Origin: a virus
Virus record (IMG/VR): IMGVR_UViG_3300029362_000001
Span: 1-64,000 of that record
Length of the DNA: 64,000 nt
Strand: one strand, 5' to 3'
Shown one piece after another: positions 15,189-64,000 of the stretch. Within the stretch, counting starts at the first letter, position 1. Each line of letters starts with the position of its first letter. A model generated the notes under the pieces. That model searched no databases. It was given only the letters and a program-made list of their open reading frames with translations, and was not told where the DNA came from. Position numbers and translations under genes: made by a program.

Positions 15189-15721
15189 GAGGCGAAATTT
15201 GTCCTTATTGTGGAAGAGAAACCGAGTTGGTCAATGCCGATAAAATATATAGCAGAAAAGGCTTAGGGATGGTTATGATGTGTAAACCATGCAATGCTTA
15301 TGTCGGTGTTCATGAATCAGGGCCGAATAAGGGAAAAGCTAAAGGCCGGCTTGCGGGGCCATCACTGAGGTCTCTTAAGATAAGAGTCCATGCCGAACTT
15401 GATAGACTATGGTCTACGCCGGAGGAACGGAAAAGGATGTATAAAGATTTATCTGAATTTCTCTCTATACCGGAAGAGTACACACATATAGGTATGTTTG
15501 GCGAGAAGACGATGGGAAAAGTCTTTCAGTTCTGTCATGTAAACAAAGAACGATCAGGTTCGAGAATAGAATGGCATAAACCTGGAGATAAGTGCCCTAA
15601 TAAAAACAATCAAATAGTGTCAGGCAGTAGCGCATGTAGAGGATGTCCTGAGTATCTTCATGATGAGAAAGACGGGTATGTCTGGTGTGATCCTGATATG
15701 AGCTACGGCAGGTTGAAATAG
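15155..15721 (+). CDS. Hypothetical zinc-ribbon protein (188 aa)
   Basis: CPYCG ... CKPCN and C-terminal CRGCPEY motifs. Confidence 0.5.
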   Translation: MELNERQQRVLRGEICPYCGRETELVNADKIYSRKGLGMVMMCKPCNAYVGVHESGPNKGKAKGRLAGPSLRSLKIRVHAELDRLWSTPEERKRMYKDLSEFLSIPEEYTHIGMFGEKTMGKVFQFCHVNKERSGSRIEWHKPGDKCPNKNNQIVSGSSACRGCPEYLHDEKDGYVWCDPDMSYGRLK

Positions 15722-27077: not shown

Positions 27078-27385
27078 CAATAGAACAACTAAATTATTTA
27101 TTAAGAAAAGAGCTTTATGCTATAAAAAACCATAAAGACAACATTGATAGAATCAAAAAAGAATATTTTGATTCCAATTATGGGTTAAAAGAAGGAGATA
27201 AGATCCGTATTTTACACGAAGCAGGAGATGAAATGATAGGCTTCTTGAAAAAAGTTGAAGTATGTGAAGACGGAGATCTGTACTTGACAATCCAAAAACA
27301 AAACGAAAAAGGTGACAGAGGCAGAGGGAAATGGAATATGTATCTATCATCAAAATTAATTAAAATAGAAAAATTATCAGATTAA
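27074..27385 (+). CDS. Hypothetical protein (103 aa)
   Basis: SD aggaggaaaa. Confidence 0.5.
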   Translation: MTIEQLNYLLRKELYAIKNHKDNIDRIKKEYFDSNYGLKEGDKIRILHEAGDEMIGFLKKVEVCEDGDLYLTIQKQNEKGDRGRGKWNMYLSSKLIKIEKLSD

Positions 27386-27392
27386 TAACGAT

Positions 27393-27935
27393 ATGATTAG
27401 AGCAAGATTTTACATTAAAAAATCCGACTGCGGTAACGACTACCGTCCAGTCAAATGGCCTATAAAATATCCATATTGGTGTAGTGGTGAATCCGATGAT
27501 TCATTCATACTTGTAGCGTATGCCGAAGACGAAGACAGCATAAAAGAGCTGTGGCCGGAAGCATACGATATTAATGTCTTAGAAAAAGATACTGAGGTTA
27601 AATTCACATTAAGATTTCCTAAGCCTAAATGGTATGAATTGCAAGAAGAGAGATCAGAAGAGTATGATAAATTATATGGTAAATTCGTATGGGTTACAGA
27701 CATGTGTCTAAAAGATGGGAAAATAAGAAAGGTAAAAGCCAGAATAGAAGATTGTGGTGGTCTTTTATTAGCCGACACTCCTGGTCGTTACACCCCTTAT
27801 CAGATAGGGGATTGTGCTTTTGAAAGCAAGGAAGAGGCTTTAAAACATGCAGAGGAACAGAGAACGGATTTAATTAAGTCTCTTAAGTTACAAATACATG
27901 AACTTGAAAATCTAAAATTTGAATGCGATGATTGA
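27393..27935 (+). CDS. Hypothetical protein (180 aa)
   Basis: ATG start. Confidence 0.5.
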   Translation: MIRARFYIKKSDCGNDYRPVKWPIKYPYWCSGESDDSFILVAYAEDEDSIKELWPEAYDINVLEKDTEVKFTLRFPKPKWYELQEERSEEYDKLYGKFVWVTDMCLKDGKIRKVKARIEDCGGLLLADTPGRYTPYQIGDCAFESKEEALKHAEEQRTDLIKSLKLQIHELENLKFECDD

Positions 27936-27988
27936 ATAATTTGATTATTTTACAAATAACGATTACATTTACGATATAAATCATTCAA

Positions 27989-29179
27989 ATGAGATTAGTT
28001 GAAAGGCATATAGTTAAAGACAACCGGTTTGAGGATATTTGCTTCAAATCCGGCTTGTTATATAATTATGTTCTTTACAACATTCGTCAAGGAATCTTTT
28101 CAGGTAACTATTTAAAGGAATTTGATTTATCAAACAAACTTTGCAAAGAAAACCAATTCGATTTCAGGAATTTACCTAATCATGTATCCCAACAGGTGAT
28201 TAAACAGGTATTTAAAAACATAAAATCCTGGATAAAACTCAAGAAGGATTTTGAAAAGAATCCTTCTAAATACGGAAATCATAGACCTCACCTTCCATCA
28301 TACAAACAAGGTAAGAAACAAAACATGGTTGTTTTCACCAACTGCAATTGTAGGGTAAAGGGTGATAATTGTATTTATTTTGTTAAAGATATAATCAAAC
28401 CTATCAAAACAAATGTAAAGAAAGACGAACTAAAACAAGTTAGAATAATCCCTCAAGCTACATGTTATGTAGTAGAGGTAGTTTATGAAAGAAAGGAAAC
28501 TGATCTTGGTTTAAACAAAGACAATTTTCTTTCGATTGATTTAGGATTGAATAATTTATGTTCATGTATTAGTAATGTAGAAACTAATTCTTTCATTATA
28601 AACGGACGGGTTATGAAATCAGTAAATCAGTGGTACAATAAGAAGAAAGCTAAGTTGATGTCTTTTGTTGGTAATAAGGGAACTTCAAATAGAATAAGAA
28701 AAATTACTTTGTTTAGAAATTGTTGGATAGAAGACAAATTGCATAAAATCAGTAGATACATTGTAGACTTTTGTAAATCTAACAATATAGGAACAATCAT
28801 CATTGGATTAAACAAAGAATGGAAAAACGAGATAAATATCGGTAAAAGGAATAACCAACATTTTGTTTCTATTCCTCATTCTAAATTGATTGATAAGATT
28901 GTTTACAAAGCAAATCTTTTAGGGATAGAGGTAATTACTCATGAGGAATCTTACACATCAAAGATTGACCATCTTGCTTTTGAACCTCTAAAGAAACAAG
29001 AATCCTATTTAGGGAAAAGAAAGAAACGTGGATTATTCCAAAGTTCCGTTGGAAAGCTAATTAATGCTGATATTAATGGAGCTATAGGAATAGCAAGAAA
29101 AGTAGTCGGTGATTCTTTCATTGGAAAGATAATCGATAGTGGATTTGTGTTTAATCCGGTTAGAATAAATATTTTGTGA
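27989..29179 (+). CDS. tnpB: TnpB-like (IS200/IS605 OrfB family) RNA-guided-nuclease homologue, 396 aa, with a degenerate C-terminal zinc finger and an apparent E-to-G change at RuvC-II
   Basis: RuvC-I SIDLGLNNL (D184) and RuvC-III NADINGAIGIARK (D361) are present. The expected hhhED RuvC-II block reads TIIIGLN (G273). The canonical YTSQxCSxCG ... FxCxxCG zinc finger is replaced by YTSKIDHLAFEP ... FQSSVG, with all four Cys lost. No IS-end hairpins lie upstream, and only 16 nt separate the stop from the next ATG. Confidence 0.75.
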   Translation: MRLVERHIVKDNRFEDICFKSGLLYNYVLYNIRQGIFSGNYLKEFDLSNKLCKENQFDFRNLPNHVSQQVIKQVFKNIKSWIKLKKDFEKNPSKYGNHRPHLPSYKQGKKQNMVVFTNCNCRVKGDNCIYFVKDIIKPIKTNVKKDELKQVRIIPQATCYVVEVVYERKETDLGLNKDNFLSIDLGLNNLCSCISNVETNSFIINGRVMKSVNQWYNKKKAKLMSFVGNKGTSNRIRKITLFRNCWIEDKLHKISRYIVDFCKSNNIGTIIIGLNKEWKNEINIGKRNNQHFVSIPHSKLIDKIVYKANLLGIEVITHEESYTSKIDHLAFEPLKKQESYLGKRKKRGLFQSSVGKLINADINGAIGIARKVVGDSFIGKIIDSGFVFNPVRINIL

Positions 29180-29195
29180 TATAAGGTTGAATCTA

Positions 29196-29933
29196 ATGAA
29201 TAAAATGAATAATTTTAATAACATTAACTACGCAGCAAAAGCCAGAAGAGCTTATTTGATAAACAATTTCGATAAGATTCTTAACAGCCTCAACACGCTT
29301 CATTCGACGGTTGAAACCATGACGTTGTTCGTAAACGACCAGGCTTATAATTACATTCTTAAGCTGAAGGAAGTGATTAAGGGTGGTCCTATGTACAAAC
29401 ATAATGTCAAACGATTTTTGAATGATATGGACAAAGAGATAAAGAGGTACAATGCTTCTATCTACTACATAAATAAAGAGCGTAGTGAGGTTATAGCTGA
29501 TATAACACAAGCGATGGAAGATTGCCTCATGCCATACATAGACGACCTGGCCGGCGCTATAAGGGCAGCCGTGTGGTCGAGGGGTGTGTCCGAGGAGCGG
29601 ACGGAAGCGGCGGTACTGTCCCTAATCGTATCCTCCTTGGCTACGACATCAGGCAGACTTATCTCAGGTGGATATCAGATCATGAAAGAAATGGGTGGAG
29701 GTCAAGGTGGTAATCCATTTACGTTTATGAGCATTGATAAGATAAGACACTTATCTACATCATTGTCTGATGCTATTACCGGTGGAGAAATAGCTCTTGA
29801 AGAAAAAGAAGCCAATAACATAACTAAGGCAATGGATGTTTTTATTGAGAAAATGTCTGATTCGGATATTGTCGATAAGGTAATTAGCATACTCGAAGAA
29901 TCAGAATCTAAAAATAAGGAGGAGCGATCATGA
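29196..29933 (+). CDS. Hypothetical protein (about 245 aa) immediately downstream of the TnpB-like gene; contains a GC-rich island
   Basis: In-frame ATG (M4) of the TTG-started track ORF; function unknown. Confidence 0.5.
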   Translation: MNKMNNFNNINYAAKARRAYLINNFDKILNSLNTLHSTVETMTLFVNDQAYNYILKLKEVIKGGPMYKHNVKRFLNDMDKEIKRYNASIYYINKERSEVIADITQAMEDCLMPYIDDLAGAIRAAVWSRGVSEERTEAAVLSLIVSSLATTSGRLISGGYQIMKEMGGGQGGNPFTFMSIDKIRHLSTSLSDAITGGEIALEEKEANNITKAMDVFIEKMSDSDIVDKVISILEESESKNKEERS

Positions 29934-37986: not shown

Positions 37987-38216
37987 GTACCCGACTTCAT
38001 TATTTGTTTAAACATACCAATTCCGTTTATTACAATATGACCGCTTCGCATACGACCATTATTATGATTGTGTAGAAAATTGAAACCACTTTCTTTTTCC
38101 TGTCTTTCAAAAGAACTAATATCCTTTCCTCTACGAGCTCTTCCAAAAGCTTTCTTGAACAACTTGCCTCTAAAGGTCTTGACGAGGATCTTGGTAGCGT
38201 TAGATGTATTTCCCAA
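37983..38216 (-). CDS. Hypothetical basic protein (77 aa)
   Basis: ATGA overlap with the downstream gene. Confidence 0.4.
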   Translation of the reverse strand: MGNTSNATKILVKTFRGKLFKKAFGRARRGKDISSFERQEKESGFNFLHNHNNGRMRSGHIVINGIGMFKQIMKSGT

Positions 38217-38441
38217 ACAGTTTGTAATATCTACGTTGTAGAGCTAAAGCATGATTCCATACAAAACAGCATTCGCGAAGCATCTTATCAAGATACTTCG
38301 TTTTCTTTGAATGATAGATGTTGTATTTGTATGAAATCATTTTTAACCACATTTATAATACAAATATAATAATAACTTTTTGGCATATATCAGAATCAAT
38401 TATTAAAGAATACATATATGAATAAAAGAATCATTGATCTC

Positions 38442-38873
38442 CTACTTAAAAGCAGGGGCTTTGTTAAAGATAGTAAATTGAAACCGCTCCTTGTTAGTAG
38501 GCGGATCTTGATTCAATTTACCAGTCGCAAGCCATTCTCCATCATGATACAATTCGGCAAGTTTCTTTACCTTATTTTTAAGAAAAGAATACTCTTGTAT
38601 AACTTCCATAAAGTCAGTTTCGTTAGCTTTACCCTCTATGAAGATAACGGTTTTGCTTCCAGGTCTATGATCGTCTAAGCTTGCCGGGATTCCTAATATC
38701 GTCCATCCTTTAAACTCAGCTATCTTAAAACGCATAACGTCAAACACCTTATAGAAATCATCACAATCTACAGATTCTATTACCTTAATATCCTCTTCTG
38801 TGAATTTACCTCGTATCGGAATAGCGTAATGACCAGGACGGCCATCGGTTCCGAAATATGCGATTCTAACCAC
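38442..38873 (-). CDS. Hypothetical protein (143 aa)
   Basis: ORF in the - block. Confidence 0.5.
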   Translation of the reverse strand: MVRIAYFGTDGRPGHYAIPIRGKFTEEDIKVIESVDCDDFYKVFDVMRFKIAEFKGWTILGIPASLDDHRPGSKTVIFIEGKANETDFMEVIQEYSFLKNKVKKLAELYHDGEWLATGKLNQDPPTNKERFQFTIFNKAPAFK

Positions 38874-52541: not shown

Positions 52542-55500
52542 TTATTCCCTATTTACACTATTCAACAACTTCATCAACTTGCCGTTTTTATTCAAAGACG
52601 TAGGCAAATTACCTCCTTCTTTTGCTGCCACCATATCCTTAATCTCTTCTGTTATGGCTGCCACAACAAAATCAACTATTTTTTTCTGAGGCGCAACAGC
52701 AAGTTCTTTAGACACATTATCCGCAAACCATACATTAGGAGTATCAAACGAATCTATTAACTCAGGTTTACCATTCTCCATAAGATAAAGCCTTGTCTCA
52801 TATCCATAACCGTAACTTGTCTTAGGATCATAACCTTCAACCTTTACACCAAGCTTTCCACTGTTATCCAATATATCTTTAGCTGCATTAAGAAGCCAAA
52901 CCTTTTGTTCTGGCATATCATCTAAATTATTACCAGATTTATTTATCATATCCGATAACACTTTCATCATTGAAGATACAGAAGCATAAGCGGGTGATAT
53001 ATCTGAATTTTCAAGCATCTTCGGATACCACATATTGGTATCACTTCCAAATGTAGGTCTTATAATACCACTTTCATATCCACCTATATCGACGGAAGGA
53101 GTATTAATACCAGGATCTATGCCATTATTTATCAACTCTGTTTCAGATACCTCAACAATATCTATTTCCTCTCTTTCACCAGTATGATTAGCAACCAAAC
53201 TGTAAGTCTTCTCTCCATTGTCGGCTATTCCCGATTCTGTCAAAGAAAATGATTCAATAGTTGCCGATGATGATTTCGATTTACCAACAGGATACTCTGC
53301 CATTTTCTCAGTAAATAGATCCCTGAGACCCCCCATCTCTCTATAACCAGCCTCCTTGGAGGTTAATTTGGTTGAATACGTTACTGTGTTAGGTGAATAC
53401 AGTTCGAGATATTCTTTACGTATCTCATTTATACCATCATCTTGAACCTTAGTTATTTGATCAGCTATATTAATATCACTTACTGCATAGTTTCCAACGC
53501 CCTCCATTCCACTAATAGAATACAGTGCATTAAAAAACACCTTTTCTTCACCATCCGAGAAACTATTTTTTACATCATCGTATTTTTTTAAGAAATACCT
53601 GCCACTTTCGCTATCCCTCTCAAATACTTTAGATAAATCAATGCCATCATTTTTCACCCTCTTTCTTATAGTAGCTATATCAGCAGGCGAGAATCCTTTT
53701 TCATAATATCTTACTCCAGATTCTACATCGCCGACTGTACCTCTATTTTTTCTTAAAATATCATTAAGGGATAACGCTGTAGCATAGGCTATATATTCTT
53801 CGGGTTTACCTCCTTCCTTCTGCGCGATCGCATTTGCTATTTCAGATACAATATTATCATAAATCTTATTCTCCTTCTTAATTCTATCATTCTCTATATC
53901 CATCTTGTCTACAGCGCTATTAAGCTGCATATAAGCATCTGTGGCAGCTTTTCTCTCTGCCATAGGTAGCTTATCAAACATATCATTAGAAAGACCTCCA
54001 TTGTCCTTTATATACTTAAGAAGTTTTTCTTCATCCATAAGATACTTGTATCCTGATGTTTCATCCGTCATATTTCTTGATATGGCAGCTTGAATATTTT
54101 TCATGTTTTCAGCACCAAGGGCCGTAGATAGTCTACTTCCGGATGTTACAAGATCTGTATATGCCTTATTAAACTTCTTATGAGTTTCTTCTGATATGCT
54201 AATATTTTTAGTTTCGATAGGATTAGCTGAAATAGTTCCACCAGAGTTTGTGCCAACGCCCACCTGCATGGCTCGGCTTCCAGCTCTGCCGCCTGCCGCT
54301 CCTGCACCAGAGGACATAAGTTTTGCTATTCTGGCTTCATTAAGCCTATTCTGCATCTTCAGACGTTCTTCGTCTAATCCAAATCTGGCTTCATCCTTAT
54401 TCTTACCATATTCAAACTCTGCAATATCCCTATTTCTTTCATATTCAAATTCTATCTTCCATTTTTCGAAATTCAAATTAGCTAATCTTTCCCTCTGATT
54501 ATATTCTTTGGTTTTCCAGTAAAGCTCGTCGGCTTTGATTATGAAAGACGAATTATCATAAGCATATGAAGCAGCAGCATTATTAATAAAATTATTTTCA
54601 ATAACCTTCATCGCTCCAAGATACGGATCGTAAGTCCTTTCATCCATTCTGCTAAATTCAGATTTCATGGAAGCTATTTCAGATTTGGCTCTCTTTATTT
54701 CATTTTCAACCATTTCTTTCTTTGCAGGATCAGAACCCAAACCGGAAAGATCGGCAGTAAGAGCATCAACATACCTCTGCTTATCACTTATCTGCTTATT
54801 CATAAAACCAAGAACAGAATCATACGAATATAAAGAGGGATTAGAGTCTACCATGTAAATAGCCTCCACCTGCATCTGCTGCCTTGCTTTATCTGATAAC
54901 CCTGACAATGCGAAAGAAGCTATCTGTTCAGGAGTAAGCATATCCTTAGTTACTTCTTGTACTGCCCCGGTAGGATGACCATCCTTGTCAAGAATAGGAA
55001 TCTGAACTTTAGCTCCTTTATGAAGCTTGCTTATAAAATCTATCCTATCTTTTAATTCCTTATTATAATCAGTATAAGGAGTATATTGAAGAGGAGCAAG
55101 ACGGGAACCAGCCTTTCCATCATTCACCCATTCATTATACGGCTTTAAAGCCGCATAAGCATTCGCAGCAGAATAAAGTTCTGGATTATTTATTTGTAAA
55201 TCAGATAGCATTTTATGCATTCTCCTGCCTTCTTTTGTGCCGGCAATCGCGTTAATGACCGTATCATCCAACACTGAACTGATCTCTCCTTGTATAGCTC
55301 TCGTAACACCATCAGAAGAAAGATCCACGCCTTTGAATTTTTGATTGATGTTAGCAATCACACCTGACATCTTATCTTCCATATAAGCGCGGGCTTCAGG
55401 CTTATCTATCTCTTGACCCATAAGATAATCTACCTGGGTATAGATCTTTTCACGAGCAGCATCAACCTTCTGCTGTTTGTACATCATGACGTCCTTAACA

Positions 55501-55565
55501 AGATCTATGTTGTAAGGACTAACATACGGGGCATATTGCCTTAAAATACTATATTGTGAAGCCAT
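52542..55565 (-). CDS. Large hypothetical protein (1007 aa)
   Basis: ATG start; the stop is 4 nt before the upstream gene's start region; function unresolved. Confidence 0.6.
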   Translation of the reverse strand: MASQYSILRQYAPYVSPYNIDLVKDVMMYKQQKVDAAREKIYTQVDYLMGQEIDKPEARAYMEDKMSGVIANINQKFKGVDLSSDGVTRAIQGEISSVLDDTVINAIAGTKEGRRMHKMLSDLQINNPELYSAANAYAALKPYNEWVNDGKAGSRLAPLQYTPYTDYNKELKDRIDFISKLHKGAKVQIPILDKDGHPTGAVQEVTKDMLTPEQIASFALSGLSDKARQQMQVEAIYMVDSNPSLYSYDSVLGFMNKQISDKQRYVDALTADLSGLGSDPAKKEMVENEIKRAKSEIASMKSEFSRMDERTYDPYLGAMKVIENNFINNAAASYAYDNSSFIIKADELYWKTKEYNQRERLANLNFEKWKIEFEYERNRDIAEFEYGKNKDEARFGLDEERLKMQNRLNEARIAKLMSSGAGAAGGRAGSRAMQVGVGTNSGGTISANPIETKNISISEETHKKFNKAYTDLVTSGSRLSTALGAENMKNIQAAISRNMTDETSGYKYLMDEEKLLKYIKDNGGLSNDMFDKLPMAERKAATDAYMQLNSAVDKMDIENDRIKKENKIYDNIVSEIANAIAQKEGGKPEEYIAYATALSLNDILRKNRGTVGDVESGVRYYEKGFSPADIATIRKRVKNDGIDLSKVFERDSESGRYFLKKYDDVKNSFSDGEEKVFFNALYSISGMEGVGNYAVSDINIADQITKVQDDGINEIRKEYLELYSPNTVTYSTKLTSKEAGYREMGGLRDLFTEKMAEYPVGKSKSSSATIESFSLTESGIADNGEKTYSLVANHTGEREEIDIVEVSETELINNGIDPGINTPSVDIGGYESGIIRPTFGSDTNMWYPKMLENSDISPAYASVSSMMKVLSDMINKSGNNLDDMPEQKVWLLNAAKDILDNSGKLGVKVEGYDPKTSYGYGYETRLYLMENGKPELIDSFDTPNVWFADNVSKELAVAPQKKIVDFVVAAITEEIKDMVAAKEGGNLPTSLNKNGKLMKLLNSVNRE

Positions 55566-58408
55566 CAGCTATTTCTCCTTCTCTTTTTATATTTATCTTC
55601 TTCATCATCCTCCAAGCTCTTCAAATAAGGTGTAGAATAATCACCCATATTCATCACATCCTGATTGCCTTGAACGTAAATAATTTGACCACTTGGAAGC
55701 ATTCTCATATTCGGAGCTATGGATGCTATGGTATTTAATGAAGTTCGAACATTAAACTTATTCTGTATCTCGCTGTTTATACTGTCATAATAACGAGCAA
55801 GATTTTCATCCCTTATAGCCATAGCTTTCAACAACCCAGATTCATAACGTTGCCTTTCTGCTATGTTCTTATCATCTGTCTGAACATAAGCCATTTCATT
55901 GAATCTATCAGCTTCGTTTATTTGCCTTGCGTTATTGAAATTTACTTCATTAACGTACTTGGCTATATTGCTTCCAGCTATGGCGTTCATATTAGCCAGA
56001 ATAGCAGCCCGCTGGGAGTCGGGCACGTCACCTACTGCGTCTAACTGAGCCGATGTCGCGCGGTTGAGCTCGTTGATATACTGATCAGCAGATTGCAGAA
56101 CCGGATCTATTCTCGGAGCCTGATGCCTTTCCAATCCCTCTATCTCCAAGCCTGTATCGAGCGTTCTCAGCATCTCCGGGAAGATAGGACCGAACGCCGC
56201 CGGTCTGTCCTGTCCTTTAGGTCCGTTGTCTTCAACCACCTCCTCTGTATCGGTGTCGGTTGCAGTCGTAGGCGTACTTGCTTTCGGTTTTACCTCTATC
56301 CTTCCAGGAGATCCAATCTTAGGCGGTGTAAGGCCTGGTGCTATGGGACCGGCCTCAATAGGCTTCATTTCTGGTTTAACAGACTCAAGAACGAAGTCTA
56401 TTTCCGGCATTAACCCACTATCTCTTAAAGCAACAAACTTATTATAATCGGAGCCCAGAATCTTCTTAGCGGCATCAGATTTATCACCAAATAAGTCAAC
56501 ATAATTCTTTATCCCTTTTTCGTTTAACAATCTTTTTTGCTCTGCCGAAACAACGTCCAACCCATAATAAGAACGAGTAGCTGTTGTCTGACCAAACTTA
56601 TCATCTACGGCAAATGAATTATAAGCCTGATTCCCTCCGTAGCTTCCGGCGTCCTGGCCCCAGAATCCGTACTCATCTCTGAATTTCTTGGCTGCATCAG
56701 CATTCGTGATAGCGCCTACATCAGCTAACGCCCACAATGCATTTAATTGCCTGTTATATCCTTTCTGAAAACCTTCTGTATCAAAATCACCATCCGTATT
56801 GTACTTGTTAGCCCATCGGTTTACATCAAGCAAATTAGATACCGCCTTATCATTTACCCTTCCGTATCCTAAATTGCTTCTATGTTGTAGATTCTGATTG
56901 GCATTGACACTGGAATCGGGATTAAGAATCTGCTCACGACCACTAACATCAGATACAGTCATATTAAGAGTTCGTCCAAATAACTGATTGATAAGCTTAT
57001 TGTAGCCGATAGCATTCTTTCTAAGTTCCTCCAGCTCCTTCTGAGTAGGTCCACCTTCAGCCATTTTTCTGGTTTGCTTAACATACTCGTCATATATCCA
57101 GTTCTTAGCATCTGATTCTGCAATATTAAAAGCCTTAGCTTGTTTCTTTACCTGATTCAGATCAACAACCCCGCCATCCCTGAAAAAAGCATCCATCTTC
57201 TCGTTACGCTTAGATTCTTCCTGTTTGCCATAAACGATTTCAGCGAAAGAACGAAATTGTGCTTCAAGCTCGTCTATCTCTTTCTGGTTTTCATTGACGT
57301 ACTTGGAAAGAATAGAAGCATTAAGATTAGATGTGTTTTTGTCTTTTACATCTTCATTTTTCTCTAATCTCTTATATACACGCTCCTGATCTTCGTACTT
57401 ATCAGACAAACCAATCTTCTTCTTATATCGATCAAGGAGTGTAGCATACGTATCTTTTGACGTTGCCTTAATACCATAATTTTCTCTAACGTAAGAGGCA
57501 AACTCATCATCTATCTTACGATAATCGGAAACAATATAAGCCTCTGGCAAATCAACCGGAGTGCCACCATTTTCATGTCTGTTCCCTTTGGCTTCCATAG
57601 GCCCTACGGAGTCAGGAGTCAGCACGTACTCGCCTTTCTCTATCTCTACATTCGCAGCATCTTCCATAGACTTGGGAAGAGGATAAATATATTCGCCGGT
57701 CATATCAGACGTATCCATCTTCCGACCGTTACCTAAATTCACGCCACCACCTTCACGTTCCCACTTGATGAATTGCTGACGACGCTCCTTGGCAAGTTTT
57801 TCCCTCGCTGCCTGCTCGTCTCTGCTGGCTGCATACGCAGCAGATGAAGCTCCCATGATATTACGGGTAAGACCTAATCCTAAACTAACACCAGACAAGG
57901 CAGCTTGAGCCACATTAGCACCGACCTTATTACCGGCTCTTATCCGGCCAAGACTTGTACCGAACATTTGAGCTCTGCCGGTTAGATCGGGTGAATAATA
58001 TGGGGTAGTCATAGGATCAAGAGGATTACCATCTTGGGAACGTTTTTCTTTAGAGGAATCAGCATCAACACCACCTACATTCATTGCATTATCAACGACT
58101 GATTTCTCTACGTTTTTAACCATACCCCTATTATCAGCGAGATATCCTGCATATCCTGCATCATTATTTTCAAAAAACGGATCGGATGTAGGCATACTAC
58201 TAAATGGATTTATCTCCCCCTCCTCTGTTTCTAAAGTCACATCAGAAGGCATATATATATTCTGAATATCAGATTCACCCCATTTATTAACAGGCGTTCC
58301 ATAATCAAGAATAGGCTGAGTAGAGGATACATTAATATCCTGTTTCTTATCCTGAACACTACCGCCAGGAGCGAATATCGGACGATTTTTTATGATTCGT
58401 AATTTCAT
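55565..58408 (-). CDS. Large hypothetical protein (about 947 aa)
   Basis: The in-frame ATG (M6) is preferred over the GTG at 58423. ATGA overlap with the downstream 1007-aa gene; contains a 300-bp GC-rich island. Confidence 0.55.
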   Translation of the reverse strand: MKLRIIKNRPIFAPGGSVQDKKQDINVSSTQPILDYGTPVNKWGESDIQNIYMPSDVTLETEEGEINPFSSMPTSDPFFENNDAGYAGYLADNRGMVKNVEKSVVDNAMNVGGVDADSSKEKRSQDGNPLDPMTTPYYSPDLTGRAQMFGTSLGRIRAGNKVGANVAQAALSGVSLGLGLTRNIMGASSAAYAASRDEQAAREKLAKERRQQFIKWEREGGGVNLGNGRKMDTSDMTGEYIYPLPKSMEDAANVEIEKGEYVLTPDSVGPMEAKGNRHENGGTPVDLPEAYIVSDYRKIDDEFASYVRENYGIKATSKDTYATLLDRYKKKIGLSDKYEDQERVYKRLEKNEDVKDKNTSNLNASILSKYVNENQKEIDELEAQFRSFAEIVYGKQEESKRNEKMDAFFRDGGVVDLNQVKKQAKAFNIAESDAKNWIYDEYVKQTRKMAEGGPTQKELEELRKNAIGYNKLINQLFGRTLNMTVSDVSGREQILNPDSSVNANQNLQHRSNLGYGRVNDKAVSNLLDVNRWANKYNTDGDFDTEGFQKGYNRQLNALWALADVGAITNADAAKKFRDEYGFWGQDAGSYGGNQAYNSFAVDDKFGQTTATRSYYGLDVVSAEQKRLLNEKGIKNYVDLFGDKSDAAKKILGSDYNKFVALRDSGLMPEIDFVLESVKPEMKPIEAGPIAPGLTPPKIGSPGRIEVKPKASTPTTATDTDTEEVVEDNGPKGQDRPAAFGPIFPEMLRTLDTGLEIEGLERHQAPRIDPVLQSADQYINELNRATSAQLDAVGDVPDSQRAAILANMNAIAGSNIAKYVNEVNFNNARQINEADRFNEMAYVQTDDKNIAERQRYESGLLKAMAIRDENLARYYDSINSEIQNKFNVRTSLNTIASIAPNMRMLPSGQIIYVQGNQDVMNMGDYSTPYLKSLEDDEEDKYKKRRRNS

Positions 58409-58476
58409 ACTATCTTTTTTCACAAAGATAAGAGAAACGAACGAGAAAATCCAACGTTATGGGATACGTTTAAAAA

Positions 58477-59496
58477 TCAATCATGTACGGCAGACAAACC
58501 GCCCGAATCAGGGTCGTACTTAAGACCGCATGCCCGGCGATAGTTCTTAAGCGCTCTCTTGTACAAAAACAGCACTGTCTTGGAAACTATTTTCTTCATA
58601 GATTTGGTTAAAACCTCTTCTGTTGAAACAGACATCAGACAGCTATTCAAAAACGACCTGACATTGGAACCGAACAAGATCTTCACCATTTTTCTAAACG
58701 TTCTAAAAAGATATGATGCCGAAAGAGCCTTTAATCCATTGCGAGCCAGTCTCTTATTCAAATACGAAACAGCCTTTTCAGATAGACAGAGCCTATTCTT
58801 TCCTTCGCTATCTACCTCTGATGAAAACCACGAATATAAAGTGGTAGGATGTTTCTTAAGGTGATTGATGAAGGAAGTCATTATCCCTTCTTTTAAAGCC
58901 CTTTTGTGGGCTACGCATGCAGCAATCTTCTCTTCTCTTTTTAAAGAGCTGTCAAGGCATCTAAACACCGTCCTATCGTCTCCGATGAAATACTGAGGAC
59001 GTTCTTCCTTAAACTTAGCCCGATATGCGGCATATCCTTCCTTACGGAGCATATCTATCTGAGACCGGATATAGAACCTTACACACTTTTCTTCAGCTTC
59101 TTGCACGCTTTTAAGATAAGGAACTGACTTTCTACCATATCGGAGATAATCATAAACCATAGCCTCAATAAAGTCATTGTACGGAAAGAATCTTCCAAAT
59201 CCAAAGTTCCAAACTATGAAACATCGCACTCTATCTTTCCAGTAATCAGATATGAGAAAGTTGCTACAATATCTCAACTTCCTGTCTTTCTGATAGAAAT
59301 GATGAGTATGTTTGTCATAAAATAGATCAAAATATCTCAAATTGCCTAAACACTGACCGGCTGGACGGCGTACTACATTGTACCCTAAGTTGCTGAAGCT
59401 ATTGTATATAACTTCTATCGGAGAGACCTGCTCTTTCTTAAAGAGCTTATCGTGTAACTTGTGAGGATCTATTATTTCTTTTAACTTTGTGTCCAT
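58477..59496 (-). CDS. Basic, aromatic-rich hypothetical protein (339 aa)
   Basis: ATG start. An HxHH-type motif was noted but the motif order does not fit an HUH Rep protein. Confidence 0.5.
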   Translation of the reverse strand: MDTKLKEIIDPHKLHDKLFKKEQVSPIEVIYNSFSNLGYNVVRRPAGQCLGNLRYFDLFYDKHTHHFYQKDRKLRYCSNFLISDYWKDRVRCFIVWNFGFGRFFPYNDFIEAMVYDYLRYGRKSVPYLKSVQEAEEKCVRFYIRSQIDMLRKEGYAAYRAKFKEERPQYFIGDDRTVFRCLDSSLKREEKIAACVAHKRALKEGIMTSFINHLKKHPTTLYSWFSSEVDSEGKNRLCLSEKAVSYLNKRLARNGLKALSASYLFRTFRKMVKILFGSNVRSFLNSCLMSVSTEEVLTKSMKKIVSKTVLFLYKRALKNYRRACGLKYDPDSGGLSAVHD

Positions 59497-59825
59497 ATTG
59501 ATGTTGTTTTAGTGCAAAGATATGGTTTTTCATCATACGTTCAAAGAAGAAAATGCACGGCCTTGTATCCGGTTTGAGAGAAATAGGATACAAGGTTTTT
59601 TGTTTTATGACGGTTTGGATAAGAGACGGGAAAACGGTTCTGAACGTAACCGCCTGACCTTCAGGGGTGGGACAACAAATCTTGAATTAAAACTACGCCT
59701 ATGAATAGTCTCCGTTTTCCTTAATATTAAGACCATTTTCAATGATCTTACCCATTATATCATTTATATTATTTTATATACTTTACCATTTATTCATATA
59801 ATTGTTTACAGTGAATGAACTTAAC

Positions 59826-59985
59826 GACCGAAGGGAGTTAAGTGAGTGAACGGATTGACAAATTACTTTTTCCGTCATTGTATTGTTAGCCTAATTGTGT
59901 TAAAAGATTGAGTATCGTGACCGAAGGGAACGATGCGAAAGAACATATAATATTTAAAAACGACTGAACCTATCGACTGAAGGGA
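59826..59985. repeat. Three direct copies of GAC(C/T)GAAGGGA (about 59826, 59928, 59975) within a 650-bp non-coding region, plus an inverted core copy (ACCTTCGGT) at about 60182
   Basis: Read directly; the spacing is about 100 and about 47 bp. Confidence 0.55.
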
Positions 59986-60055
59986 GATAGGTGATGGAGT
60001 GACGTTAATAATTATATTAGGTAGCCAGTGGAGAATTAGGCAGGTTTGTAGGCGA

Positions 60056-60075
60056 GACGGGCGTCCATGCCCGTC
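60056..60075. promoter_or_regulatory. GC-rich hairpin GACGGGC-gtccat-GCCCGTC
   Basis: 7-bp perfect stem; no T-run on either strand. Confidence 0.4.
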
Positions 60076-60153
60076 AGGACAGTAGAGGTACGTAGGTCTG
60101 TTCTGTTAAACCAAGGCGATGATAGTTCCATCCTTCACGAAATTGCACAAAAA

Positions 60154-60219
60154 AGCCGGATTATCTTGATATCGTTCTTCAACCTTCGGTATCCGTGTAA
60201 CGAGTCTCAAATCCGGCTT
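60154..60219 (-). terminator. Long-range inverted repeat AGCCGGATT ... AATCCGGCT followed by a T5 run on the minus strand; terminator of the 806-aa gene
   Basis: 9-bp arms about 48 nt apart; on the - strand the structure is followed by tttttgtgc. Confidence 0.4.
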
Positions 60220-60254
60220 CGATTTATTAATGAAGAAAAAAAATACCTCTTGTT

Positions 60255-62675
60255 CTAATTTTCGGTGACGCCTTTAATGCGAAGCTGTATATTGGGAAGC
60301 ACGGCATTAATCAAAGCCATTTTCTTATCCTCTTCGCTTTCTTTTTCATGCTGTCTATACATCATGCTGTAATCACTGTCATCACCATCCTTTTTCCCGT
60401 CTAACGTCAGTAAATGATTTATGATGTCCTTACCATACGTTTCAGTCCATGTACGGAATCTCTCTTCCTCGGACTGTCTCTCCCGGGACGGAGCTTCCGG
60501 GTTAGGGAGGGCGGCTGCCACTTCTACCTCTGGAAGTGTTACCGATGCTGCTATTTCTCCATCATCTCCGAATCCCATTTGACCATACGAAGATACGGAA
60601 TTTTCTTCAATATCCAAACCAAGATTTTTAGCAACTTCCATAGCATAGTTATAACGGTCATCGTTTCGTATCACACTTTTATGAGGGCGTCCTGCCCCTT
60701 GGTTCCAAGCTACTACAGCATCCTTAAGGTTATCGGCGTTCATAAAATCCTGCCGGCTGTAGTTGTAATACCCTGGTCCTTTTTTTCCTTTTCTTGTGTA
60801 TAAGAAATTAGAATATCCGGTTTTCCCTTCGTATTCGTCAGCTAAGAACTCAAGTTGGTCTTTGAATGTTGGTGTAGAATGACCTTTCTTTTTGGCGTGC
60901 TTGAATAGCTTATCCATGCGCTCATTATGCCATTGCTGTATGCCGTATGATGTTCTGTTGTCTCCGTATATGTCATCTTTAAGACCGGATTCAGCCATGA
61001 GATTACCTATGATAGCAAGCGCCTGTATCTTAGACATGCCTCTTTTATTAGTAAAATATTCATATGCTTCACGCTGTTTACCAACCACGCCACCTTCTTT
61101 CTTGATATTGGTATTGTATCTCTTTCCATTCCACGTAAATTCCTTAAGACCTCTTTTCCTGGCTTCTTTAAAGGCTTCGCCTCTTGTAGTGGAAATCGGG
61201 TCTTGTAATTCAAGATCGTTTTTTATACCAAGAATGGCATTAATAATATTATCATCCTTTTTATCATCATCATCTAATTTATCAACATTATTCGAAACGT
61301 AAGATTGGCTTATTAAATTTGATACGCTTTTTCTATTTTTATAAGTTCCTTCTTTATCTGATGGAGCTTCAAAAGCATACACAAGTGGATACGAATAATC
61401 CGTATCTGGATCTTCTGACATAAATTCGCTTACTGCATGAATGGCTTTATTGTATTTAGTATCCTTTATACTATACATCCCAGCATCTTGAACATGATCA
61501 TAAAATCTGTCTATCATGTAATTGATATATCCACGCTTATCCCCCTTAAATCGCTCTTTATCTTTCTCAAACTCTTTGGGTGGATATCTTTTATCGGATT
61601 CTTGGAAAAGTCCCTTAAACCCTCCATAATCAGATACGGCATAGGGATTACCACCAGATTCTTCAATAATATTTCCAAGTACGGCTTCTATCTGGCGTTG
61701 ATTGAAACCTTTATCATATAAAGCATCATAGATCATATTCATTCCATCTACGTCCATAGTGCGGTGCGTACCCTTACCCACGCGCTTCATATTTTCATAT
61801 TTGGATTTGAATAAATCCCAATCTATTTCCGGCTTAGAAGAATCCCCTCCTTGTTTTTTAGATCTTATCTTCATTTTTTTATCCAGATCATTCTTGGAAT
61901 CAATGGCGGATTTCAACAAAACCTTGTTTGGATCATTCTCTTCATATGGATTCTTATCTTCTACATAATCCAGAATATCAAACGGGTATCCTATTGTATC
62001 AAGAATCTTAGTAACAATCCCTACACCAAGAGGTTGATCGCTTCTATAAAAATCATACTTATCTTTTACGACCATCCTACCTCTATCATCACGGTACATA
62101 GTGAAACTTGATAAGCCTGATAAATCATTTAAATCGCCGTAAGCATCTGGTATAAAATTGTATTCGTTAAATACCTGATGTTCTCCAGTTCTGGCTTTTT
62201 TTAAGAGATCTATTCCCTCTTCCACCATTCCAAGTTTCCTACTTGTTACATCCCTTAACTCCTCCAAATCAGATACGTCCTTGCCTGCAACTTTTCCATC
62301 AATTATCTTATTATCTAAGGAATCAAGCTCCCTTCCATATTTTTTAGTCATTTTCTCCCACCCACCATTTATCCTGTCAGATATAATGGATTTGATATTG
62401 TCTGGTATTCTGACAATCCCATTTTCTTCTTTCAGATTATTTGGTTGGTTTAAGAATCTAAACCAAAGATTCTGACTAAAATCATCTACATTGGCTTTCG
62501 GAACATCTTGACCAAAAAATTCCATTATTTTGGTTTTTAATCCTCTTTCATCAGCATACACGTCAGGTGTTATATTAGATGCCAGATATTCTCTAAGTTT
62601 TACAAACGGACCAATTTTACTCCATAATGTTTTTGGTTGTTTGTCTCTTACATAATTTTTAGTCTTCTTTGCCAT
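60255..62675 (-). CDS. Large protein (806 aa) with two lytic-transglycosylase (SLT/lysozyme-like) domains; probable virion-associated peptidoglycan hydrolase
   Basis: EESGGNPYAVSDYGGFKGLFQ and AESGLKDDIYGDNRTSYGIQQW match the SLT catalytic Glu-Ser ... GLMQ pattern twice; gaggaag SD. Confidence 0.6.
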   Translation of the reverse strand: MAKKTKNYVRDKQPKTLWSKIGPFVKLREYLASNITPDVYADERGLKTKIMEFFGQDVPKANVDDFSQNLWFRFLNQPNNLKEENGIVRIPDNIKSIISDRINGGWEKMTKKYGRELDSLDNKIIDGKVAGKDVSDLEELRDVTSRKLGMVEEGIDLLKKARTGEHQVFNEYNFIPDAYGDLNDLSGLSSFTMYRDDRGRMVVKDKYDFYRSDQPLGVGIVTKILDTIGYPFDILDYVEDKNPYEENDPNKVLLKSAIDSKNDLDKKMKIRSKKQGGDSSKPEIDWDLFKSKYENMKRVGKGTHRTMDVDGMNMIYDALYDKGFNQRQIEAVLGNIIEESGGNPYAVSDYGGFKGLFQESDKRYPPKEFEKDKERFKGDKRGYINYMIDRFYDHVQDAGMYSIKDTKYNKAIHAVSEFMSEDPDTDYSYPLVYAFEAPSDKEGTYKNRKSVSNLISQSYVSNNVDKLDDDDKKDDNIINAILGIKNDLELQDPISTTRGEAFKEARKRGLKEFTWNGKRYNTNIKKEGGVVGKQREAYEYFTNKRGMSKIQALAIIGNLMAESGLKDDIYGDNRTSYGIQQWHNERMDKLFKHAKKKGHSTPTFKDQLEFLADEYEGKTGYSNFLYTRKGKKGPGYYNYSRQDFMNADNLKDAVVAWNQGAGRPHKSVIRNDDRYNYAMEVAKNLGLDIEENSVSSYGQMGFGDDGEIAASVTLPEVEVAAALPNPEAPSRERQSEEERFRTWTETYGKDIINHLLTLDGKKDGDDSDYSMMYRQHEKESEEDKKMALINAVLPNIQLRIKGVTEN

Positions 62676-63078
62676 TTTTTTCTTCCTCTAAGAATCCAAA
62701 CATTTCACCTGCGCAGTTACCAACAAATCCAGCTATGTAAGCTGCGTGTTCATCTTCTCCCACCTTAAAACCAAGAGACATATTACAATGTTGGCATACC
62801 GACATAGCTGCATGAAATGATTCATGACATATGTTTTGTATAGTCATATCATTCTCACTTTGAAAATTCCATAATAACTTAAAAGCTCTATCATCTCCCT
62901 TATCACGAACAAGATTCATAAAAGAGACTTCTGAATCTAAATCGCCTTCATCTCCCCATTCTCCTTCATGATCCAATTCTGCATTCTCAAAACGATCACA
63001 CAATGTTTTGTAATCTAACCCTATGGTGATAATCAACTTTAGTGGATATATCACAAAATCAAATTCTTTTTCTTTCAT
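62659..63078 (-). CDS. Small HExxH-motif protein (139 aa); putative zinc metallopeptidase-like
   Basis: The sequence CHESFHAAM gives HEXXH; strong aaggagga SD; overlaps the start of the 806-aa gene. Confidence 0.45.
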   Translation of the reverse strand: MKEKEFDFVIYPLKLIITIGLDYKTLCDRFENAELDHEGEWGDEGDLDSEVSFMNLVRDKGDDRAFKLLWNFQSENDMTIQNICHESFHAAMSVCQHCNMSLGFKVGEDEHAAYIAGFVGNCAGEMFGFLEEEKNGKED

Positions 63079-63194
63079 TTTTCTTCCTCCTTCTTAAATT
63101 TGTGGTAAGCATCACAAACCTTGTCAACTAACCATCCCATCAGATAGGCGGCATGCTCATCTTCTCCGGCGTAAAAACTGTAATTTATGATTAT
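63075..63194 (-). pseudogene. Truncated 3' fragment (39 codons, no start codon) of a paralogue of the adjacent HExxH gene: ... FYAGEDEHAAYLMGWLVDKVCDAYHKFKKEEEK*
   Basis: The translated fragment aligns with the C-terminus of the 139-aa protein (FKVGEDEHAAYIAGFVGNCAGEMFGFLEEE). It is preceded by an in-frame stop, and its own stop overlaps the ATG at 63078. Confidence 0.5.
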
Positions 63195-63207
63195 TTAACC
63201 AATAAAA

Positions 63208-63228
63208 CCACCATACTTTAGAAGGTGG
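63208..63228. mobile_element. Subterminal hairpin CCACC-atactttagaa-GGTGG, about 45 nt upstream of the second tnpB; candidate IS200/IS605-family left-end structure. It is bracketed by a 9-bp inverted repeat CTGTAATTT ... AAATTACAG
   Basis: Read directly; lies exactly where the homology of the truncated paralogue ends. Confidence 0.4.
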
Positions 63229-63271
63229 ATGAATTGGTTTGATTAATTTTGAATCAAAATTACAGATAAAA

Positions 63272-64000
63272 ATGATTTCATACAAATACAACATATACCA
63301 TTCAAAGAAAACGAAATATCTCGATAAGATGCTTCGTGAGTGTTGTTTTGTATGGAATCATGCGTTAGCTTTACAGAGAAGGTATTATGGGATGTTTGGG
63401 AAATACATACCGGTTGGTAAGATGAAGAAACATTTTACCAAAAGAATTAAAAGAAATCTTCTTCATTCCCAAACAACACAAGAGATACTTGAACGTCTTG
63501 ACGAATCTTATAATCGTTTCTTTAAGAAATTAGCCAAACGACCATCTGAGTTTAAATCACCAGAGAAATTCAATTCTTTTGTATTCAAACAAGGCGGCTT
63601 TACTTTGAATGGTAATTGTCTAACAATCAACAAAGGAAAGAAACGATTTAGATTCTCATACAGTAGGGCGTACAAAGGCAACATTAAACAAATAAGGATA
63701 GTAAGAGAGACCTGCTCACGTTTCAGTTTGATTATAGTTGCAGATTATAATCCTTTTTCATCCAACAGAAAGACACATGATGGTGCATCTGTTGGATTGG
63801 ATTTTGGGCTGAAAACTTATCTTACTGCAAGTGACGGTAGCAAAATCGATTCTCCATTATTCTTCAAACAATATCAAAACAAGATCAAGAAATGCAATAG
63901 ATGTATTTCGAGATCGAAAATTGGATCTAATAATAGAAAAAGGAGACGTTTTGAACTTCAACAAACGTACAGGGAAATTGAAAATCTACGTAATGATTTC
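63272..64000 (+). CDS. tnpB: TnpB (IS200/IS605 OrfB) N-terminal 243 aa, partial because it runs off the window end; not in the ORF track because it has no stop in the window
   Basis: Translation MISYKYNIYHSKKTKYLDKMLRECCFVWNHALALQRRYY ... ASVGLDFGLKTYLTASDG shows the canonical TnpB N-terminal fold motifs and the RuvC-I GLDFG Asp. Confidence 0.75.
   Translation, partial: MISYKYNIYHSKKTKYLDKMLRECCFVWNHALALQRRYYGMFGKYIPVGKMKKHFTKRIKRNLLHSQTTQEILERLDESYNRFFKKLAKRPSEFKSPEKFNSFVFKQGGFTLNGNCLTINKGKKRFRFSYSRAYKGNIKQIRIVRETCSRFSLIIVADYNPFSSNRKTHDGASVGLDFGLKTYLTASDGSKIDSPLFFKQYQNKIKKCNRCISRSKIGSNNRKRRRFELQQTYREIENLRNDF

Follow-up and report, generated by a model that had tools for sequence, protein, structure and literature searches.

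The window analysed here is a stretch of 64,000 nucleotides (positions 1 to 64,000 of the IMG/VR record IMGVR_UViG_3300029362_000001) from the genome of a gut epsilon crAss-like phage, and close to its right-hand edge a tnpB gene lies beside two small genes of the opposite strand. One of these is an intact gene for a 139-aa HExxH protein (p139-type; 62659–63078, minus strand), which is an open reading frame matching PHROG 1365 (E = 4e-8); the other is the 3′ remnant of a p137-type paralogue (63075–63188, minus strand), which is composed of 37 native codons (INYSFYAGEDEHAAY...KKEEEK) and a stop codon that overlaps the ATG of p139. On the plus strand are found the target or transposon-adjacent motif (TAM) TTAT (63185–63188), which abuts the left end and is the counterpart of CL in IS608, then the left end itself (LE, 63189–63271), conserved from GATTATTTAACC onwards in about 60 loci with differing left flanks, and then the first 243 of the 379 codons of tnpB (63272–64000).

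The sequence past 64000 was taken from metagenome contig L002, which is 100% identical to window 52659–64000 (11,342 bases). The TnpB N-terminus that the earlier note had seen running off the window from about 63272 is confirmed as an open reading frame, and in L002 it is completed to 379 aa with its stop at 64411. The right end, which that note had proposed to look for together with an omega-RNA, was also found: in L002-extended coordinates, omega-RNA-like stem-loops with covariation lie at 64314–64393, GAAT (64394–64397) stands 5′ of the right-end (RE) hairpin (64398–64418), and the terminal TCAA (64425–64428) is followed by a flank predicted to encode the guide (64429–64448). That is to say, an IS200/IS605-family element is complete at 63189–64428 (1,240 bp), and its junctions are identical across five IMG/VR contigs as well as the JGI and Logan contigs of this lineage.

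Ends, protein and predicted RNA of the element

The CCACC/GGTGG hairpin noticed earlier upstream of tnpB is indeed present at 63208–63228, 44 nt ahead of the ATG, and its two arms (63208–63212 and 63224–63228) make up the inner stem within a larger imperfect palindrome (63197–63239). Folded as DNA, the LE gives −8.3 kcal/mol (z = −3.6), and some 60 of the 80 related loci have kept the hairpin; 18 loci that were first taken as lacking an LE carry either a second LE variant (variant B, TTTAC followed by GATCTTTAACAAAG, with a CCCCTGC hairpin) or decayed forms. In every variant-A copy that bears a left end, TTAT stands directly before GATTATTTAACC. The motif CTTTAG occurs in the loops of both the LE and the RE hairpins, and a small palindrome, TTTGATTAATTTTGAATCAAAATTA, is located at 63238–63262 ahead of the tnpB ATG. 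The 9-nt inverted repeat CTGTAATTT/AAATTACAG, which had been read as bracketing the IS, does exist; its left arm consists of host-gene DNA plus the target and is absent from all other copies, and it is therefore a coincidence and not a terminal repeat.

The TnpB of 379 aa has an intact RuvC D-E-D triad and matches Pfam OrfB_IS605 and HTH_OrfB_IS605, PHROG 506 'transposase' (E = 1e-43) and, over the full protein, the NCBIfam models guided_TnpB (228 bits) and IS200_TnpB (215 bits). The TAM of ISDra2 is TTGAT, and the one predicted here is TTTAT. With ISDra2 TnpB (PDB 8EXA / 8H1J) there is a full-length alignment (residues 11–352 with 8EXA, E = 1e-28), in which GLDFG, LETL and NDRD occupy the positions of the catalytic D, E and D; the two proteins differ in length (408 aa in ISDra2) and in the first zinc-ribbon motif, which is C-x-C here and C-x2-C in ISDra2.

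The last 115 nt of the element are filled by three stem-loops, with compensatory changes at 9 of 36 pairs. Paired cells make up 98.7%, compared with 38–53% when the partners are slid, and the covariation score of the predicted structure was reached by none of 500 shuffles. The RE hairpin (z = −4.8) is conserved across loci and likewise has compensatory changes in its stem. Judged from these sequences, the predicted omega-RNA would overlap the 3′ end of tnpB and finish at the right end. An Rfam scan of the element and its flanks matched no omega-RNA family. A sub-threshold Rfam match to 'Transposase-1' (25 bits against 42.8) lies inside the neighbouring Ro60 gene and was judged to be chance. 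The compact TnpB, the predicted T-rich TAM and the natural series of diverged, putative omega-RNAs offer a candidate set for biochemistry.

IS608 of Helicobacter pylori ends in AGTATGTCAA. Its cleavage sites are TTAC (CL), 19 nt 5′ of the left palindrome IPL, and TCAA (CR), 10 nt 3′ of the right palindrome IPR, with the guides AAAG (GL) and GAAT (GR) (PMC3201880; PMC5934647). The element at 63 kb likewise possesses a subterminal imperfect palindrome at each end, both on the same strand, lacks terminal inverted repeats, and is inserted 3′ of a tetranucleotide without duplication; GAAT and TCAA are identical, TCAA ends 10 nt past the RE hairpin, and the left cleavage site TTAT lies 19 nt from the foot of CCACC. 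The differences are that TTAT is combined here with AAAA before the hairpin foot instead of TTAC with AAAG, that tnpA is missing, and that the copy resides in a phage genome. In the variant-B siblings, TTTAC is combined with AAAG, in agreement with the TTAC/AAAG pair of IS608.

The interrupted gene and its tandem paralogue

The element is located inside the p137-type gene in the opposite orientation. The earlier note had described a start-less fragment of 39 codons resembling the C-terminus of the HExxH protein; it is a C-terminal piece of a paralogue, of which 37 codons are native and the other two (Ile) belong to the IS. The resemblance holds in proper alignments: the remnant matches positions 96–125 of PHROG 1365, i.e., its C-terminus (E = 4.6e-5), and its DNA is 92.5% identical to the 3′ end of the one gene that crAssE-Sib has at this locus (L001 4678–4784) and 95.6% identical to the intact gene of L076. 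No family was found for the HExxH proteins in Pfam and NCBIfam.

The idea of a tandem pair with one disrupted member is borne out by the relatives L067, L075 and L076, in which a p137-type gene is followed by a p139-type gene and both are intact; the event was not a simple insertion, as about 270 bp of p137 are gone. While the last 37 codons are retained at 63075–63188, only 16 nt of the p137 5′ end (64429–64444) remain beyond the right end, and what lay between the two remnants is missing; a loss to the left and a loss to the right of the IS both fit. The same three relatives read cattttTAT followed by ATAATACTTGTTTCATAACAAAC, that is, the TAM and a 23/23 match to the right flank of the window, and the predicted target, TTTAT plus ATAATACTTGTTTCATAACA, is present in the IS-free L075 and L076. 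In crAssE-Sib there is one uninterrupted gene at this position, and its homology to the window ends at 63184 and restarts at 64431. The p139-type gene is missing there and is 96–99% identical in many relatives. On sequence grounds, the disrupted copy is the orthologue of the crAssE-Sib single gene, and the 139-aa gene is an extra copy that crAssE-Sib lacks. The spot is variable in general: some relatives have just p137 or just p139, others have both genes or truncated forms, and a repeated CATTTTTTTCTTCCTC junction delimits the p139 cassette. The case shows IS activity to be one way in which these abundant gut phages lose accessory genes.

Relatives, mobility and origin

Relatives of this TnpB are encoded in 296 IMG/VR stretches (about 300), of which 80 were fetched and compared. 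In these 80 loci, the boundaries (TTAT before GATTATTTAACC on the left, and the end of GGGAGTATGTCAA on the right) recur with more than 25 different combinations of flanks. At empty sites in relatives, the right-flank sequence is immediately preceded by TTTAT or, in fewer cases, by TTTAC, ATTAT or CTTAT, and the comparison of occupied with empty sites shows insertion 3′ of TTTAT/TTAY with no target duplication. A clean pair is given by the junction of CCAGTATTTAT and GTTAAAAG, which is empty in L013 and L021 and occupied in L024 and L036. All TnpB copies of 99–100% identity sit at the single site of the window, and the nearest copy elsewhere is only 85% identical; the insertion at 63 kb is therefore not recent. 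As an observation apart, deletions that adjoin the right end terminate at TTAY motifs throughout the family.

No tnpA is present in the 83 nt between the LE and tnpB or anywhere across the window, except for a vestige of about 20 codons at 38 kb. Without this Y1 (HUH) transposase gene, the 63-kb copy is non-autonomous, a condition that is recognised in the family, in which about 75% of tnpB genes have no tnpA nearby (PMC10055086). An autonomous sibling of 1,650 bp was found in L019, whose tnpA (Pfam Y1_Tnp, E = 1e-38) diverges from tnpB; it is cleanly inserted at TTTAC, and the window has the same site in its empty form, at 15538/15539. Divergent tnpA and tnpB genes constitute the IS605 arrangement. 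The L019 type of tnpA occurs in 22 related viral contigs, one of which also bears a non-autonomous copy, and the five IMG/VR contigs of the window lineage are all outside this set of 22. Since neither the window nor the lineage contigs contain tnpA, the present mobility of the 63-kb copy is unproven. The 'active IS' of the earlier note is plausible for the family, while the copy itself is without tnpA.

We consider, with a probability of about 0.82, that 63189–64428 is a complete non-autonomous element of the IS608 type in the IS200/IS605 family, with tnpB and a predicted omega-RNA and without tnpA. Among the members of this known transposon family it is an ordinary one, though its documentation is unusually good.

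As for its origin, a TnpA acting in trans, from a co-infecting or ancestral phage copy or from the host, may have delivered the 63-kb copy by single-strand 'peel and paste', and an IS-adjacent deletion may have removed the missing p137 segment. TnpB and its omega-RNA, with the right-flank guide ATAATACTTGTTTCATAACA, could then cut IS-free alleles, where, at the beginning of the intact gene, TTTAT is followed by the same sequence, and recombinational repair during co-infection would copy the element together with its deletion into the cut alleles, i.e., homing. If such homing between co-infecting phages is true, it would be a natural RNA-guided gene drive in viruses. A close counterpart is ISGst of Geobacillus stearothermophilus, where TTTAT is the TAM of GstTnpB2 and TnpB cleaves the donor joints made of TAM plus flank (Meers et al., PMC10055086); in the published assay, HpyTnpB of IS608 itself was inactive (PMC10055086). 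To judge by its features, the present element resembles ISGst in the predicted TTTAT TAM, in the many tnpA-less copies with conserved ends that are presumably mobilised in trans, and in the predicted omega-RNA that overlaps the tnpB 3′ end, with a right-flank guide and a homing model. The ISGst copies are in one bacterial chromosome, whereas those described here are spread across a population of phage genomes.

Three other accounts of the locus were weighed. If TnpB were domesticated, immobile and fixed in the lineage as an RNA-guided nuclease, e.g., against related phages with an intact p137, the identical junctions in all contigs of the lineage, the lack of tnpA there and the match of the predicted guide and TAM to the intact allele of sister phages would be accounted for. 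However, all that TnpA needs for recognition is retained at both ends (TTAT, the hairpins and GAAT/TCAA), more than 25 sites are occupied by the family, which has autonomous members in the same phage group, and a guide matching the empty site is the automatic result of insertion and no sign of exaptation, which leaves domestication improbable. It is considerably less probable still that the tnpB cassette was acquired without transposition, by homologous or illegitimate recombination between phages (mosaic exchange), with the gene fragment as a scar. Such exchange would suit the variable spot, the repeated junction around the p139 cassette and the missing 270 bp, which simple insertion does not explain, and it may well carry the occupied allele from phage to phage. 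How the junctions arose is left unexplained by it: they are precise to the base, are the same in more than 25 unrelated contexts and always lie at TTAY and TCAA, and empty sites that match them exist. A chimeric assembly, in which a bacterial IS was joined to a phage contig, comes to mind because assemblies classically break at IS copies and the window stops within the element, and yet it can hardly be credited: independent JGI, Logan and IMG/VR assemblies agree on both junctions, and a scan of 185,579 bacterial species genomes, which reaches close relatives only, gave a single relative, 55% identical and in a phage-like context. Within that reach, no host source of the element was identified.

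Beyond the non-autonomous IS608-type element itself, it is speculated that an IS608-like family has radiated in epsilon crAss-like phages (about 300 tnpB genes, about 7% with tnpA, and almost none detected in bacterial genomes), that its right end was re-joined after a downstream TTAY with deletion of 12–300 nt and a fixed left junction, e.g., by a TnpA 'half-integration' in cis, and that homing by TnpB and omega-RNA would drive the occupied and deleted alleles in the manner of a gene drive. This combined picture is tentative, and we regard it as rather doubtful as a whole. A second insertion followed by recombination may also lead to the adjacent deletions, although its intermediates, solo ends or tandem IS copies, were not found among all fetched loci. 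In the papers searched, there was nothing relevant on adjacent deletions made by IS200/IS605 elements. If the TAM-bounded deletions next to the right end are made by the transposase, a new reaction would be added to the IS200/IS605 repertoire.

Other TnpB loci in the window and in crAssE-Sib

The IS family of the 63-kb element is represented a second time, by a truncated copy with LE variant B at 38204–38477 on the minus strand, which comprises a left end, the tnpA vestige and the first 45 codons of tnpB. It is 96.7% identical to L023 2364–2637, and by tblastn 38375–38434 gives a weak match to the C-terminus of TnpA.

According to the passages of Babkin et al. 2024 (PMC11054128) that deal with them, crAssE-Sib has two TnpB genes of 18% mutual identity, which occur only in some Epsilonunovirus genomes, i.e., in the same group of epsilon crAss-like phages; those passages name them 'transposases' and define no ends, target motif, RNA, insertion polymorphism or tnpA partners. 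One of the two genes has 74% DNA identity to the 63-kb element, and crAssE-Sib is empty at both window sites (63 kb and 28 kb). What had been two 'transposase' annotations of epsilon crAss-like phages now leads to a delimited element with ends, the target/TAM TTTAT, a predicted omega-RNA scaffold, a predicted guide and an autonomous partner.

The element at 28 kb (27933–29224, plus strand) is a separate one of unrelated lineage. Its TnpB of 396 aa (27989–29179), which had been called degenerate, is full-length and reaches 158 bits with NCBIfam guided_TnpB against a cutoff of 100; aligned with the 63-kb TnpB, it displays no relationship (BLASTP E = 0.02). Of the motif thought to be common to both tnpB loci, the 13-mer TTTGATTAWTTTT occurs only at 63238 and is absent at 28 kb, while the 12-mer TTTGATTAWTTT within the same comparison is also found at 27940, with two matches against 0.2 expected and 2 of 100 shuffles reaching two. 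Because the two elements and their proteins are unrelated, the 12-mer is at most a common promoter-like AT-rich box. Comparison with crAssE-Sib shows that the 28-kb element sits cleanly between two overlapping genes, and its right end is common to MT835500.

The tnpB gene and the limits of its element

The open reading frame from 63272 encodes, on translation, a TnpB N-terminus of 243 codons inside the window and continues past the window end; its matches to Pfam OrfB_IS605 and HTH_OrfB_IS605 and to PHROG 506 (E=1e-43) agree with the earlier note, which had read a TnpB start here. The exact sequence of the neighbouring 139-aa HExxH protein is present on 12 public contigs, and JGI Ga0243849_1000721 (L002), which is identical to window 52659-64000 with zero mismatches and reaches beyond 64000, serves as the extension of the window coordinates. 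In L002, tnpB is completed at 379 aa with its end at 64411, and the protein aligns over its whole length with ISDra2 TnpB, has all of the RuvC residues D, E and D, and exceeds the NCBIfam guided_TnpB cutoff. A hairpin, CCCACGC-ACTTTAG-GCGTGGG (64398-64418), has the stop codon in its loop and is directly followed by AGTATGTCAA; the right end and the omega-RNA-like region that the earlier note proposed to look for past 64000 are both present.

A total of 296 IMG/VR contig stretches, mostly phage contigs of 80-155 kb, code for TnpBs that share 80-100% identity with the one in the window, and 80 of these loci were fetched. Five (99-100% TnpB identity) share the junctions of the window, while the remainder lie in many other contexts, with 38 distinct flank combinations. 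Left-side conservation starts at TTATGATTATTTAACC... in about 60 loci, and right-side conservation stops at ...GGGAGTATGTCA(A) in all loci. Searching the window and the remaining loci for every right flank recovered empty sites for 24 junctions, the bases before the flank being mostly TTTAT, otherwise TTTAC, ATTAT or CTTAT/CTTAC, and rarely GATAT or CTAC. A simple insertion is seen between the occupied loci L024/L036 and the empty loci L013/L021, CCAGTATTTAT^GTTAAAAG; comparison of occupied with empty sites revealed no target duplication at the junctions with recovered empty sites. Together, the conserved end points and the empty sites place the limits at 63189-64428, that is to say, by sequence comparison the element is the 1,240-bp segment GATTATTTAACC...GTATGTCAA, inserted 3′ of TTAT. 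It is a well-delimited member of an already known type of element, and the finding of the earlier note is real and, in its main claim, correctly interpreted.

Other empty sites of family members lie near window positions 3390, 5767, 7136, 23074, 30346 and 43169. In a small sample, the transposon-adjacent motif (TAM) at empty sites looks unusually polymorphic among relatives (TTTAT versus TTTGT, TTTAC, TTTAA or GTTAT at one and the same site), a pattern that could mean that such sites evade insertion or TnpB cleavage. The element usually ends in A (TCAA), with T or C instead in L028, L030 and L080 (also the L022 group and L057/L058); in the three cases with an empty site the atypical base is the last TAM base of the same site, and cleavage and joining may be offset by one base in these copies.

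Likeness to IS608, mobility and the predicted guide

Compared with the published IS608 parameters (PMC3201880, PMC5934647), the left cleavage site is TTAT instead of TTAC, each 19 nt from the hairpin foot (5′ of it in IS608; from the CCACC foot in the element, whose left hairpin is two-tiered, so that this distance varies with the foot chosen), and the left guide ahead of the foot is AAAA instead of AAAG. On the right, both share the guide GAAT, immediately ahead of the right hairpin in the element, and the cleavage site TCAA, 10 nt 3′ of the hairpin foot in IS608 and ending 10 nt past the hairpin here. A second left-end variant in 18 loci, TTTAC|GATCTTTAACAAAG-CCCCTGC..., has the same AAAG/TTAC pair as IS608.

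No tnpA was found in the 63-kb copy or across the 64-kb window. A complete 1,650-bp tnpA-tnpB sibling (L019), in which a Y1 transposase of 132 aa (Pfam Y1_Tnp, E=1e-38) is encoded divergently from tnpB, is inserted cleanly at TTTAC; the window has this site unoccupied, at 15538/15539. This target occupies window 15534-15539 on the minus strand, and the L019 flanks there are 95% identical. This type of tnpA is found on 22 viral contigs, of which one (contig 113423) also has a non-autonomous copy; the lineage of the window is absent among the 22. A scan of bacterial genomes (185,579 species), which catches close relatives only, returned a single relative, 55% identical. The most likely history would be mobilisation of the window copy in trans, which is usual for tnpA-less copies (PMC10055086), and the copy may then have been retained and spread via TnpB-guided homing.

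The last 115 nt of the element fold into three stem-loops. Among 22 distinct aligned sequences, compensatory double changes affect 9 of the 36 pairs, paired cells amount to 98.7% versus 38-53% in slid controls, and the covariation score was matched by no shuffle; the same region also codes for the TnpB C-terminus. Its position and form are as expected for an omega-RNA scaffold, and the predicted guide would be the flank ATAATACTTGTTTCATAACA. In the IS-free loci L075 and L076, TTTAT is followed by exactly ATAATACTTGTTTCATAACA, where the intact p137 gene has its start codon.

The disrupted HExxH gene and deletions at the right end

The intact 139-aa gene (62659-63078, minus strand) has an HESFH motif and belongs to PHROG 1365. 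Between it and tnpB, a start-less frame IIINYSFYAGEDEHAAY...KKEEEK* on the minus strand by itself matches the C-terminal part of PHROG 1365 (E=4.6e-5). The only close relative in the phage collection is crAssE-Sib (OR575929), an epsilon crAss-like phage whose neighbouring genes are 96-97% identical; its one HExxH gene, of 137 aa, is flanked by those for the tail lysozyme and Ro60. Since the fragment (63078-63184) matches the 3′ end of this 137-aa gene at 92.5% identity and homology restarts at 64431, 14 nt ahead of its ATG, about 270 bp of the gene interior has been replaced by 1.25 kb of foreign DNA. The p137-type and p139-type proteins are paralogues, 30% identical; both genes are intact in tandem in L067, L075 and L076, while further relatives have p137 only, p139 only, or truncated p137-type copies beside an IS. 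The comparison with crAssE-Sib and these tandem relatives therefore confirm the proposed tandem pair with one disrupted member, as well as the alignment of the fragment with the HExxH C-terminus, and by sequence the disrupted copy is the p137-type gene. Relative to crAssE-Sib, the 139-aa gene is an additional 390 bp with a repeated CATTTTTTTCTTCCTC junction at its borders. The repeated junction CAT-TTTTT(T)CTTCCTC lies at window 62672-62689 and 63066-63091, and the presence/absence polymorphism of p139 suggests a cassette gained or lost by recombination at this repeat.

As for the ~270 bp lost from the gene, the IS in the window has its right junction at a validated TAM site and CTGTAAT-TTAT at its left junction. 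With a crAssE-Sib-like ancestor (GTAAT|CCAT), the deletion would lie on the left-end side; given an L076-like ancestor, whose codons ATT AAC TAC are synonymous with ATA AAT TAC (I-N-Y) of the window, TTTAT could be native, which would put the deletion on the right-end side. Seven locus pairs show a striking regularity: they are collinear over the entire IS and a left flank of thousands of bases, and differ solely in a deletion of 12-296 nt beginning exactly at the right end. In five pairs the last bases of the deleted segment are TTTAT, TTTAT, TTTAC, GTTAT and CTTAC; the two shortest deletions finish with GATAT and CTCAC. TTAY occupies 1.4% of positions, and 6 of 8 deletions (window included) end there (P ~2e-10). 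Such deletions might arise by a second insertion nearby followed by recombination between both copies, or by TnpA acting in cis, with the cleaved right end joined to a target further downstream. Neither tandem IS copies nor solo ends were seen in the fetched loci, and a search of the available literature found no description of right-end-adjacent IS200/IS605 deletions. For a specialist, the points of possible interest are this deletion pattern across the family and the radiation restricted to phages.

Beyond the right end, a short spacer that contains a terminator-like hairpin leads to a Ro60/TROVE gene and then to tRNA genes (extension 64560-66700; L002 6888-8522 and beyond; crAssE-Sib L001 5199-7168), the latter annotated as tRNA-Lys and tRNA-Tyr in crAssE-Sib. 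Within the 3′ end of Ro60 there is an Rfam "Transposase-1 RNA" match below threshold, and in the L017 group of relatives this Ro60 gene is cut to its last ~37 codons, beside an IS copy.

Other tnpB loci in the window

TnpB genes are on record in other phages too, and Babkin et al. 2024 (PMC11054128) describe a pair of TnpB "transposases" with 18% identity to each other, present in some genomes of Epsilonunovirus. Relative to crAssE-Sib, the 28-kb element (27933-29224) has inserted cleanly between two genes that overlap. Its TnpB, which the earlier note took to be degenerate, turned out to be a full-length family member without zinc-ribbon cysteines, and BLASTP gave no similarity to the 63-kb TnpB. 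A 1,128-bp DNA (cytosine-5)-methyltransferase gene of crAssE-Sib (L004 888-2015) is absent from the window at 27374-27393. The 63-kb family also has a truncated copy with left-end variant B in the window (38204-38477, minus strand); this copy is 96.7% identical to the locus L023, keeps the left end with hairpin, a tnpA vestige of ~20 codons and the first 45 tnpB codons, and is the third TnpB-related relic of the window. The right end of the 28-kb element is common to another phage record (MT835500); in the window (29180-29240) it provides the gene downstream, whose own start was split off by the insertion, with an ATG in frame (ATGAATAAAATGAATAATTTTAATAACATT) that restores the reading frame, and in MT835500 the same end runs into a stop.
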